DNA of 58,039 bases, counting the filler, from Thelocarpon superellum (lineage: Eukaryota), in assembly GCA_026025795.1 (NCBI GenBank). It is 2 parts of 2 records of this genome, joined end to end, with 100 filler letters (N's around TTAATTAATTAA, not from the genome) between each part and the next. Parts side by side here need not be neighbours in the genome. Positions count along the whole stretch, not along the records: positions 29,128 to 58,039 come from JAPEUG010000228.1; 1 more part is not named here. One strand, given 5' to 3'. Shown here piece after piece: positions 29,128 through 35,419 of this stretch (within the stretch, counting starts at the first letter, position 1; each line of letters begins with the position of its first letter). The position numbers and the translations under genes are program-made. The notes below the pieces were generated by a model, which was given only the letters and a program-made list of their open reading frames with translations, was not told the DNA's origin and ran no database searches.

Positions 29128-30253
29128 CCCGACCAGGATACCACTGCCAACTGCAAGTCGAGCCCCGCAGCACGCCAAGAGGGCTTTGAGCTGTCGTCGA
29201 GGGTATCCGAGCAGTATTATGGGCAATCGGAGGGTGGTGCCCTTCCTACTCCTACGGTTGATGGTCGAAGTCGCCCAGTCCTGCCAAAGCATCGAAGCAT
29301 GGATCTGCCCCGCACTGGTGGTTGCCATCGATGCGATCCAGACCGCGGAGATTCGATACGCCCATGTTTACTTATGCGGGGAGCGATGATGCGTGTGTCA
29401 CCGCAATGATCGTGGTACCGTGTAACTTGCCTCTGGGTGCGAGAAGTCGCCCTTGCTAATGACCCTGCGGTGGCCCCTTGCGGGATGAGGACAACGACGC
29501 GTATGCCTCTGCGCACGACTTGAATACTGTGGTGAAAGTGGACATGTGGAAAGTGGACGAGCGGGTCTTGTGCTCTGGCCGGTGATGTCGTCTTTCTGTC
29601 GTCGTAATCTACTTCATGTACGGTGGTGGGGCCTCATCTCACGCAGTGCTGATGTTTCAAACCAAGCACGTGCCGGAAGAGGGCTTCGGGCGAATGGGTG
29701 ATCCAACGCACTGATCCAAGATGCAAATGTTCCTTTCACCAGCTCTTGACCCAAGCATGGGAGGCCGAGCCCCAAAACGCCATGCGATCGCTCCCAACCG
29801 TTCTAAAAGTTGTTCAATCCTTCAGCCGACACCCCGTGACGCACGCAAACCAGTAACGCAATCCAAACCACCAGGGCGAAGAGGAAGTCCCGACGGACAT
29901 GAATCGAAAAGCCAGGGGCGACGAAGCGAGGCGAGGAGGTGGCGATGAGATATGCGACGCAGGCGGGCAGCATTGCACAGCCCATGACTCCCAGAGGGAG
30001 GAGGGGCGACGTGCGAGCGAAACGGTGACGTGGACTGGGTCAGGACGGCTTCTGCTGCGCATCCCAAAAGCCTCGTGAGACTTGACGCGGCGAGCGCAGG
30101 CGTGTCCCGTCGGCCTCCTGCCCCTGCGCGCCACCCTCGACGCCAAGACCCCGGATCCAAGCCATTCAAGCCATCCGTCCATCCATCCTTCGTCGGGCTC
30201 GGCGACGCCGTGGAGAATCAGAAAGGCACAATCCCGGTCCTTCCAATGTCGGC

Positions 30254-33133: not shown

Positions 33134-34241
33134 TTACATGAAGTCGTCCAGAAAATCGTCCGGCCGATCCTGGTTACTGGACTGCGCGATGCTCTCCTCG
33201 TTCAGCAGATCTTCATAGGCGTGGTCCCGCTGCCACGCCTTTTCCTTCCGCTCTCGCGCCACCTTCGCCTCCTCCTTCCGCTACGGTCTCGCGTCAGTCT
33301 TGCATCATAGTCACACTCCGCGCCCCTCTGGCCCTGAGGGAGCCAGCCACTCACGCGTTCCATCTGCGCCGCTTGGTCGCGCCGTCGCACTTCTTTGAGC
33401 CTCGTCTCCTTCTCTTGTCGCAGATCCGGGAATTTCTCAACCTTGGTCCTGTTCAACCGGTTTACCATTGCGTTTTCTCGCTGCGACACCAGGATTTTCT
33501 TGACCTGGCCAACATCATGGTGGAGTGTCAGCCCCGCGCGAGACTGGTATTGCCTGCGATGACGACGCGGGAGGAAGAGGTGTCACCTGCTTCGGGTCTT
33601 TGAACGAGACCTGACCCACCGCCATACTTCCATCCTTTTTGAGATTCGACCAGGGCGTATAGATGACGGTCTGGTTATCTTTCTTGTTCCCTACGCGTCC
33701 AGATGGTCAATCGTAGGACACGAGCTCGGGGCCGCCCGCGCGCAAGCACCTTCGATCGAGTTGGCCTTGGTCAATTGGGCGCAATCGTCCAGCAAGGCGG
33801 CGGGGATGGCATCCCACCGATCGCCTTCGTTCATCCGCAAATAGACATGCGCACTGGACAGCTTGTCGACGTGGAACTGCATGCATCGAGTTGGCAACAC
33901 GCCTCACGTCGCCGCCCGCCCTCGTGCCAGCTTACCCTACAACACACACCCGGCGAGCTTAGCTACCGCCGCAACAGACGTCGTGTACTTTGACAGCAAG
34001 ATGTAGATGACCATACCACACATCCTCGTCCAGACCATATTTGATGAGTTCTTCATCTATTCGCTTTTTTCAGCATCGCCCTGGGCAGGATCATGACCAC
34101 ATCCATCATCGTGGCAGTGCCTGGGCCGGGGCCTGGGCCGGGGCCGGGGCCAGATGGAACGCGCTCACTTTCGACTTTGTCCTTGCCCACGTAGATGAAG
34201 GCCGCGGGCTGCACCGTATTGGAGGTGAAGTAGAATACCAT
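33134..34241 (-). CDS. CCDC25: CCDC25 / DUF814 (NFACT-R domain; yeast Jlp2-like); exons 34241-34169, 34056-34017, 33936 (1 nt), 33876-33750, 33690-33587, 33504-33355, 33280-33134; 213 aa
   Basis: Spliced product [85 protein letters not shown]. Exon lengths sum to 642 nt (214 codons) with the 1-nt exon included. Confidence 0.92.
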
Positions 34242-34518
34242 GGCGATGTCGACCTGGTCCTGGGGCGATGGAATTGACATATGTACCGCGAAGCATCGGC
34301 ACAGTGGAGAGGCACCGCTTGAGTCGGCGCGGGACGACCCGGTCATCGGAACTTGCCGCCATTTCCCTCGAAGTGTAGTCCGATGAAAGAGCCCGATGAA
34401 GACCGCGAAAGATGTTGCGATGTACTTAATTCCACCTACCCCTACGCCCAGCGGCTTTGCTACGTAGTCTGCTATGCGAGCTATGCCGGTAGGGCACAGT
34501 TGAGCATCGAAAGCTACT

Positions 34519-35163
34519 CTAGGATTGACCGCTTGATGCGTGCGCTGCGAACGGATCAGGCATGTTAGGTTCCAGCAGCTCGACCCTCGTGCCATCCTTG
34601 GTCTCGAGGCTCCACTCCACCGTATCGAACTGGAGATGTGACGTCGTCAGCACAGTGATTTCTTCGTACCTGGACAGCCAGGTCCCCACGACGCAACTCA
34701 CATGTCCCATCCGTCCCCTCCTCAAACTCTTGAAGCGCATCAAGCCCTCTCCGCTCTTCCCCTTGACCCAGAAACGGATATCGATTCTGCCATGTAACTG
34801 GTTCATCTCGCCGCTGATCCAGGGGATCTTGGAGCGGAAATAGATCTCATCGCCGAGAATGGCGCGGGCCTTGGGTGAGGTGCGCAGCGCGTACAGCGTG
34901 CTGCTCACGATGGAGGAAGAGGACTTCTGGTAGTTGAAAATGGCCAAGGTGGAGGCGCCAAGGATGACGAGGAAGAGCGGGAGTGTGCGCAGGAAGCGCC
35001 GCGGTGCTCGCACGGGGGGTAGCGCGCGGTCGGGACGTCGTTCCATGAGCGGGCCTGAGCCGGGTGCCGGAGGGGCGATCAGGCGTCGGATTATCTGCTG
35101 GCCGTGGCGCCGTGGACGCATCATCGTGGCCAGAAGGGACCGGGTGGGTGGTCGAGGAAGCAT
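34519..35163 (-). CDS. COA1: Cytochrome c oxidase assembly factor Coa1 family; exons 35163-34702, 34629-34519; ~190 aa
   Basis: Arg-rich presequence, one TM helix, and FNYQKSSSSIVSSTLYALRTSP..LGDEI..PWISGEMNQLHGRIDIRFWVKG. Intron 34630-34701 is GTGAGT..GCTGAC..CAG. Confidence 0.85.
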   Translation of the reverse strand: MLPRPPTRSLLATMMRPRRHGQQIIRRLIAPPAPGSGPLMERRPDRALPPVRAPRRFLRTLPLFLVILGASTLAIFNYQKSSSSIVSSTLYALRTSPKARAILGDEIYFRSKIPWISGEMNQLHGRIDIRFWVKGKSGEGLMRFKSLRRGRMGHVSCVVGTWLSRYEEITVLTTSHLQFDTVEWSLETKDGTRVELLEPNMPDPFAAHASSGQS

Positions 35164-35419
35164 GTTGGAGTTTAGCAGTGTGCCAGAGACAGCATCGCAA
35201 AGGATATGGTATATGGTGAGAGTATGGCACGGATGATTTGAACGTGGTTGAGATATCGCGACACCAGCGACGCATAGCGGGAGAGGGAGATTCCGTGAGG
35301 AATCACTACCGCCCGGCGAGATGTAGCAACTCTTGGCGAGTCCATGACGAATAGCCCTACAAGCTACGGGTCATCGTCGATGTCGACATGAATGTCCGCC
35401 CATCCACAAGAACGACACC

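Follow-up and report, generated by a model that had tools for sequence, protein, structure and literature searches.

A probable one-nucleotide exon in the conserved tryptophan codon of a CCDC25/Jlp2-family gene of Thelocarpon superellum

We analyzed a stretch of 58,039 nucleotides (nt) of Thelocarpon superellum DNA (GenBank assembly GCA_026025795.1; parts of two records joined by 100 filler letters, positions 29,128 to 58,039 coming from JAPEUG010000228.1), which is referred to here as the window. Its minus strand carries, at 33134..34241, a CCDC25/Jlp2-family (NFACT-R_1) gene which starts with an ATG at 34241 and closes with a TAA ending at 33134. Judged from sequence comparison, the single G at 33936 (C on the plus strand) is very probably a real and constitutive one-nucleotide exon of this gene, flanked by two self-sufficient U2-type introns and supplying the third base of a conserved tryptophan (Trp) codon. 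This reading is favoured by the conservation of AG/G/GT in 16 distinct junctions with diverged introns, by an orthologous locus (L061) which has no rival donor, by open reading frames (ORFs) which match a Cenococcum-type locus with the same layout and contain valine-tryptophan (V-W) at this site, and by a protein profile gain of 16-18 bits over the in-frame rivals.

In the window, exon 2 (34017..34056, 40 nt) ends with GAG GAT GTG TG and is followed by an 80-nt intron (33937..34016; position 38, phase 2) which runs from GTATGG to TTGTAG and contains, at 33962-33958, a branch-like CTAAG motif whose branch A precedes the 3' splice site by 22 nt. On the other side of the G, a 59-nt intron (33877..33935; position 38, phase 0) runs from GTAAGC to ATGCAG and contains a branch-like CCAAC motif at 33894-33890, with the branch A 14 nt from the 3' splice site. 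Exon 4 (33750..33876, 127 nt, equal to 42 residues plus 1 nt) then starts with TTC CAC GTC GAC AAG. A single nucleotide accordingly stands between two complete GT-AG introns with their own signals and workable lengths, and it is needed for the reading frame, restoring the conserved Trp of DVWFH. When both introns were removed and the G was kept, the exons totalled 642 nt and encoded a protein of 213 amino acids (aa) with the motif DEDVWFHVDK. Excision of the 140 nt as a single intron gave a frameshift and a stop after 15 codons (TGA, read by eye), while retention of either or both of the flanking introns ran into stops. All of this had been claimed in a sequence-only reading of the same DNA, namely the 80-nt and 59-nt GT-AG introns around the single G on the minus strand, the completion of Trp in a 213-aa product by double splicing, the TGA reached 15 codons after excision of a single 140-nt intron, and the unworkability of intron retention; re-reading of the sequence and translation of each spliced form bore it out.

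Two other splicing patterns keep the frame open. The first, pointed out in the sequence-only reading and reproduced by our translation, uses the internal donor AAA/GTACAC (GT at 33987..33988) with the ATGCAG acceptor and adds YGHLHLAVK after the Trp, giving 222 aa (model C). That list of in-frame alternatives was incomplete, as it overlooked a second donor: the codons GAT GTG TGG themselves hold a GT, and therefore GAT/GTGTGG (GT at 34020..34021) can be used in frame with the same acceptor, which removes a 145-nt intron (34021-33877) and deletes V-W (model D). Three models are thus to be weighed: model A, with the one-nucleotide exon; model D, in which V-W is deleted; and model C, in which 9 aa are inserted. 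The mRNA junction predicted by model A is GATGTGTGGTTCCAC, and that predicted by model D is GAGGAT/TTCCAC. Model D is also the form in which the gene has been deposited. The best database match to exon 4 was P0001, a hypothetical protein of 211 aa from a Thelocarpon superellum metagenome-assembled genome, which was 100% identical to the exon and reads GLDEDFHVDK, V-W being absent through the 145-nt intron.

For comparison with other genomes, 23 family proteins were aligned and the alignment was used to fetch 80 fungal loci from metagenome contigs. Inspection of orthologues for the AG-G-GT arrangement had been put forward in the sequence-only reading as a check, and the arrangement was indeed present, with diverged introns: 20 of the 80 loci, representing 16 distinct junction sequences and 18 distinct gene sequences, carried both introns in the form TG/GT..AG/G/GT..AG/TTY. 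Three loci (L043, L044 and L077) had the downstream intron only (TGG/GT..AG/TTC), 55 were intron-free at the Trp codon, and in two the site was uncovered, although one of these, L009, still ends in CAG/G/GTATGAG at its cut edge. None of the 80 loci had the Trp codon split after TG without AGGGT. Across the 16 distinct junctions the upstream intron measured 49-67 nt and the downstream intron 52-111 nt; both introns were GT..AG in all 16, and in 10 of the 16 a CTRAY-type motif was also present in both, at 8-43 nt from the 3' end. On visual inspection, the paired introns of different lineages could not be aligned. A spliced-alignment dynamic programme written for the analysis, which scored residue matches with BLOSUM62 and permitted gaps as well as GT-AG introns of any phase, recovered both introns for the window and for 18 of the 20 paired loci; the two that it missed, L058 and L059, reflect a scoring artefact in which an inserted stop codon was accepted. 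In L043, L044 and L077 the single intron is of phase 0, lies after an intact TGG and measures 59-61 nt, which is the outcome expected from a precise loss of the upstream intron. A different, lineage-specific intron was observed three codons upstream in L050 and L051 (GAG/GT..53-57 nt..AG/GAC ATC TGG TTC), where the Trp codon itself is intron-free.

Control introns were taken from four other shared positions in the same genes (119 distinct introns, 8000 nt). AGGGT was found in one of these 119 introns, never leaving two halves of at least 45 nt, as against 17 of 17 distinct junctions with a split Trp codon (16 metagenome junctions plus the window), and the pattern is therefore beyond chance. 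Model D leaves this internal AG/G/GT unexplained. The codon before TG specified Val or Ile in all 17 junctions, and its third base was G in six, C in seven, T in two and A in two; this variation fits a codon wobble position and not position +3 of a donor, and C or T stood at +3 in only 18% of control donors. In L061 the codon before TG is the Ile codon ATA, so that the GT of the rival donor is absent and model D is impossible at that locus. Donors were scored with the 119 control introns as reference, leaving out the exon positions because these are biased by four homologous exon contexts. Within the window, donor strength alone did not discriminate between models A and D, with GTATGG scoring 5.2 bits (17th percentile of the control donors) and GTGTGG 4.9 bits (11th percentile). 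Across the 17 sequences, the median scores were 6.1 and 6.3 bits for the two donors of model A versus 2.9 bits for the position used by model D.

The proteins were also scored against a local profile built from 17 alignment rows containing VW. Model A reached 414.3 bits, compared with 398.5 bits for model D (16 bits lower) and 396.6 bits for model C (18 bits lower). Use of the internal donor AAA/GTACAC at 33988 is in our view highly improbable: the product is in frame and open, but the donor lies at the 8th percentile of control donors, the insertion would split a motif which is contiguous in all intact homologues, and the conserved AG/G/GT would be left without explanation. The motif region around the Trp is likewise contiguous in the solved structure of CCDC25 (7eof), which matches an orthologue, P0124, at E 1.7e-60.

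Loss of the Trp from public protein models was found to be widespread. We gathered 215 family proteins, among them 108 full-length-type models, of which 83 had the Trp and 25 lacked it. A shortfall of two residues at the junction was seen in 16 of the 25, and 15 of these were exact V-W deletions (P0001, P0004, P0005, P0028, P0044, P0049, P0065, P0086, P0095, P0107, P0109, P0121, P0138, P0139 and P0147). The names attached to the exact deletions include Thelocarpon impressellum, Caeruleum heppii, Sarcosagium campestre, Lophium mytilinum, Glonium stellatum, Trichoglossum hirsutum, Coniosporium apollinis, Cenococcum geophilum 1.58, Penicillium chermesinum and Bathelium, as well as others, several of them lichen fungi known from metagenome-assembled genomes. 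Ten more full-length-type models without the Trp (for example P0019, P0022, P0039, P0054, P0113, P0115 and P0198) mostly showed spurious insertions or substitutions at the junction. All 25 models lacking the Trp had an NCBI genome annotation as their source, and none came from Logan, JGI or ENA alone. Annotated Aspergillus and Penicillium models had odd junctions of the type DVC...R/FH. In a further group of models or ORFs (P0113, P0115, P0054, P0078 and P0074) an R stands directly before FH, which fits AG/G TTC with the upstream phase-2 intron only. These sequences hint at a single-intron state complementary to that of L043, L044 and L077; the state with the upstream intron only was found at none of the 80 metagenome loci.

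Evidence at the level of transcripts was obtained for an orthologue of Cenococcum type. This locus, L037, and the window have the same six intron positions (residue 25 phase 1, residue 38 phase 2, residue 38 phase 0, residue 81 phase 1, residue 115 phase 0 and residue 165 phase 0), and the model A protein of L037 minus V-W is identical in 211 of 211 residues to P0121, the annotated protein of Cenococcum geophilum 1.58 (211 aa). A search with the last exon of L037 matched ORFs on Logan contigs measuring 2.8 kb or less, the only NCBI-sourced Cenococcum-named protein in that search being the 211-aa model. P0123-P0126 are uninterrupted ORFs of 213 aa, all with VW, and P0124 differs from the model A protein of L037 by one residue, H182Q. 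We infer that these ORFs, being uninterrupted across six intron positions, are best explained as spliced RNA. P0122 (199 aa, from a Logan contig) starts with MLSSLSDIIPD, which is the 3' part of the first intron read in frame, as in L047, and beyond this read-through carries DEDVWFHVDN, so that intron 1 has been retained while the G remains without its two flanking introns. It looks like partly processed RNA of the Cenococcum-type locus, and its retention of intron 1 argues against an intronless retro-copy. It also hints that removal of the pair flanking the one-nucleotide exon is not the slowest splicing step. The VW-containing ORFs P0122-P0126 suggest that the G is present in the mature mRNA of the Cenococcum-type locus and bear on the window by homology only. 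Among the 80 metagenome loci, no cDNA-like contig could be paired with a genomic contig at 95% identity or more for any locus with the one-nucleotide exon; a pairing was obtained solely with the database proteins described above.

Taken with these data, the proposition that the public annotation is correct, and that the gene has a single intron at 34021-33877 and a 211-aa product devoid of V-W, appears very unlikely. It is in frame, it is the model adopted for P0001 and at least 14 other annotated proteins, and in the window its donor scores about the same as GTATGG. Against this, it removes a Trp which is found in 83 of 83 full-length proteins with an intact junction and in the solved CCDC25, it fails at L061, its would-be donor +3 varies like the third base of a codon, its profile score is lower, the models lacking the Trp all stem from NCBI genome annotation, and the very gene annotated as the V-W-deleted P0121 has uninterrupted ORFs with VW.

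In one genome taken alone, the same picture would arise from an assembly error of one base at a splice junction. The sequence-only reading had named a missing base at either outer junction, as shown by raw reads, among the observations that would refute it. Logan contigs of four DNA runs were compared with positions 33600-34300. In the first run (X1), a 498-nt contig at depth 160 covered 33600-34058 with no differences and no gaps. In the second (X2), a moss metagenome containing a close relative, two contig pieces covered 33641-33928 and 33931-34084. The relative differed in the 80-nt intron by substitutions at 33992 and 34000 and a 3-nt deletion at 33979, and in the next intron along by substitutions at 33717 and 33725; the one difference in exon 4, at 33792, changes CTG to TTG and was read by hand as synonymous, all other X2 differences being intronic. 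Variation in the relative thus coincides with the introns of the model. The second X2 piece retains AG/G/GTAAG and ends 5 nt beyond the G. Given the X1 contig without differences and the relative retaining AG/G/GTAAG, an assembly indel at the junction is unlikely. A gene broken by such an indel or by pseudogene decay, in which AG/G/GT would be coincidental, is exceedingly unlikely when it is also considered that the layout was found again in 16 distinct foreign junctions and that all other exons are open and conserved. The X1 run also yielded two contig variants at 34059, A (depth 140) and G (depth 53), which change the first-intron acceptor from TAG to CAG on the minus strand and are probably due to allelic variation or to a second strain in the sample.

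As to how such an exon could be spliced, each flanking intron has a GT donor, a branch-point-like motif and an AG acceptor of its own, and removal of both would join TG, G and TTC into the conserved Trp of D-V-W-F-H. The G would at once open the exon behind the upstream 3' splice site (AG/G) and close it ahead of the downstream 5' splice site (G/GT), and G is the consensus base at both of these exonic positions. Recognition of short fungal introns spans the whole intron (intron definition), and a one-nucleotide exon would on this basis need no exon-based recognition and have no minimum length. With only 1 nt between the two splice sites there is hardly room for two spliceosomes at once, so that excision is probably sequential, and either order would leave a canonical second intron (TGG/GTAAGC..CAG/TTC or TG/GTATGG..TAG/GTTC). 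The sequence-only reading had treated the arrangement as akin to stwintrons or recursive splicing while holding the G to be a true one-nucleotide exon. The latter part stands, and the former does not. A stwintron was rejected because both introns have an intact GT, branch-like motif and AG before any splicing takes place and because removal of the 140-nt unit shifts the frame; recursive splicing through a zero-length exon was rejected because the sequence is AG/G/GT and the middle G must stay for the frame.

It has also been considered that, in addition to constitutive use of the one-nucleotide exon, its skipping through a 140-nt intron might act as a regulated off switch coupled to nonsense-mediated decay. 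Skipping would yield a frameshift with a stop 15 codons on, and the outer donor and acceptor are compatible with it. The idea is speculative and we regard it as unlikely: no ORF of the skipped form was present among the 215 database proteins, though such short products are rarely called, and the predicted RNA structure of the two-intron unit was unremarkable. In 17 loci, a structure bridging both introns gave minimum free energy z-scores of -0.9 to +1.8 versus mononucleotide shuffles.

Several points weigh against the one-nucleotide exon. GTATGG is hardly better in the window than GTGTGG 5 nt upstream, and a minor isoform with V-W deleted may exist. Both branch-point motifs of the window are one mismatch from CTRAY. 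Seven sequencing runs are listed for the organism and none is on record as RNA, so that splicing in the window is deduced by homology. The Cenococcum ORFs, for their part, count as RNA solely from their lack of interruption at six intron positions. Finally, X1 is perhaps the source sample of the window itself, in which case its agreement is not independent and checks the assembler rather than the reads.

The distribution of the layout was followed on a rapidly built tree of this one protein, whose 98 rows comprise 35 named references and the spliced translations and whose deep forks are weak. L048 grouped with Penicillium and Aspergillus references (Shimodaira-Hasegawa-like approximate likelihood ratio test, SH-aLRT, 98), L071 and L009 with Coniochaeta (SH-aLRT 97), L037 and L047 with Glonium, Lophium and Mytilinidion, L022 with Candelaria (SH-aLRT 84), and the window with Thelocarpon. 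By NCBI taxonomy, the lineages of loci with the one-nucleotide exon are Eurotiomycetes, Sordariomycetes, Dothideomycetes and Thelocarpales, all within leotiomyceta. When eight intron-free rows that are possibly cDNA were set aside, parsimony required at least five changes among the three junction states on this tree. Read most simply, the paired state is old, both introns were later lost together more than once, and the upstream intron alone was precisely lost at least once. The paired layout probably dates to an early leotiomyceta ancestor; the paired introns may instead have been gained independently in separate lineages. We lean, with moderate confidence, towards an ancient and constitutive one-nucleotide exon, in which the AG/G/GT pair would have been present in an early leotiomyceta ancestor and preserved, over an estimated hundreds of millions of years, in Eurotiomycetes, Sordariomycetes, Dothideomycetes, Thelocarpales and others. 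If this is true, it would be the most widely conserved one-nucleotide exon yet described, alternative loss of either flanking intron would provide a natural route to introns differing by 1 nt between lineages, and the gene would be a natural test of intron definition with the smallest possible exon.

One-base exons have already been published, and the CCDC25 case stands out by its apparent conservation across several Pezizomycotina classes together with its systematic mis-annotation. Our literature search found no paper on a one-nucleotide exon in CCDC25/DUF814/Jlp2 genes. The comparisons which follow refer to excerpts of the papers cited. In Fusarium, CYP621A cytochrome P450 genes contain a one-nucleotide exon with an AGGGT core in 20 orthologues of one genus (Nelson & Syed 2026, PMC12940212). 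The excerpts explain the exon by the G fitting the consensus on both sides and term the case the first fungal one, so that the CCDC25 gene is not covered there. As in the window, the Fusarium example concerns a nuclear coding gene of a filamentous ascomycete, with an AG/G/GT core in which the G completes a codon of a conserved motif; it too was missed by gene predictors, and its support consists of orthologue comparison and SRA reads. It differs in gene family, in that the G there occupies the middle position of a Gly codon and not the third position of a Trp codon, and in being reported within one genus, whereas the loci with the CCDC25 exon group with Eurotiomycetes, Sordariomycetes, Dothideomycetes and Thelocarpales. 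The Arabidopsis APC11 gene (Guo & Liu 2015, PMC4674806) similarly has a constitutive one-nucleotide exon which is required for the frame and had been mis-annotated, but it is a plant gene and its splicing was shown with green fluorescent protein fusions, while the CCDC25 case is known from sequence. Long-read annotation of Coprinopsis cinerea gave 13 one-nucleotide exons (PMC12230235), which agrees with the present case in that such exons recur in fungal genes once full-length cDNA is used, and differs in that the species is a basidiomycete.

Candida small nucleolar RNA host transcripts also have one G between two introns, usable by either splice site, with processing seen in RNA-seq; unlike the present gene, they are non-coding with no frame at stake, and some of their routes are nested or recursive (PMC5033589). 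Stwintrons and the 1-nt intron shift model (Fekete et al. 2017, PMC5587772) share with the window the abutting of short Pezizomycotina introns and a shared central G. The likeness to the shift model extends to the consequence of intron loss, as losing either intron leaves canonical introns 1 nt apart and the downstream-only loci L043, L044 and L077 exist. A stwintron differs in that one of the splice signals of the external intron is broken up by the internal intron, and excision takes away the entire unit (PMC5587772). The CCDC25 introns, by contrast, are complete, and the G would stay in the mRNA. Term searches of two stwintron papers gave no mention of micro-exons.

A one-nucleotide exon conserved amid very different introns would show that a spacing of 1 nt between splice sites is compatible with fungal intron definition, and the many natural variants of the paired layout are usable for the study of removal order and skipping. 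The paired, downstream-only and intron-free states at one codon offer raw material for 1-nt intron shift models. For annotation, an AG/G/GT rule at the CCDC25 Trp codon would correct the models lacking the Trp, and the case is a warning that frame-rescuing alternative donors hide micro-exons.

Counting the one-nucleotide exon, the gene has seven exons. Exon 1 (34169..34241, 73 nt, or 24 residues plus 1 nt) is separated from exon 2 by a 112-nt intron at 34057..34168 (GTGAGC..AATAG; residue 25, phase 1). Exon 4 is followed by a 59-nt intron at 33691..33749 (residue 81, phase 1), exon 5 (33587..33690, 104 nt) by an 82-nt intron at 33505..33586 (residue 115, phase 0), and exon 6 (33355..33504, 150 nt) by a 74-nt intron at 33281..33354 (residue 165, phase 0), after which exon 7 (33134..33280, 147 nt) includes the TAA stop. 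Exon 4 alone matched Pfam PF05670 (NFACT-R_1) with 39.6 bits against a cut-off of 29.8 (E 8.6e-10), and P0001 matched the same family over residues 1-110 with 103.6 bits (E 1.2e-29). The gene encodes a solo NFACT-R_1 domain and then a charged coiled-coil tail; a solo NFACT-R_1 domain plus coiled coil is how the CCDC25/Jlp2 family is described in an excerpt of PMC4075521. Inside the 112-nt first intron, on the minus strand at about 34120-34151, there is a GGCCCC/GGCCCA hexamer repeat in a stretch flagged as repeat, and the X1 contig assemblies are interrupted around it, at 34109-34159. Directly upstream of the gene, at 34519-35370 on the minus strand, lies an open frame of 283 aa (stop to stop) which is probably a neighbouring gene.

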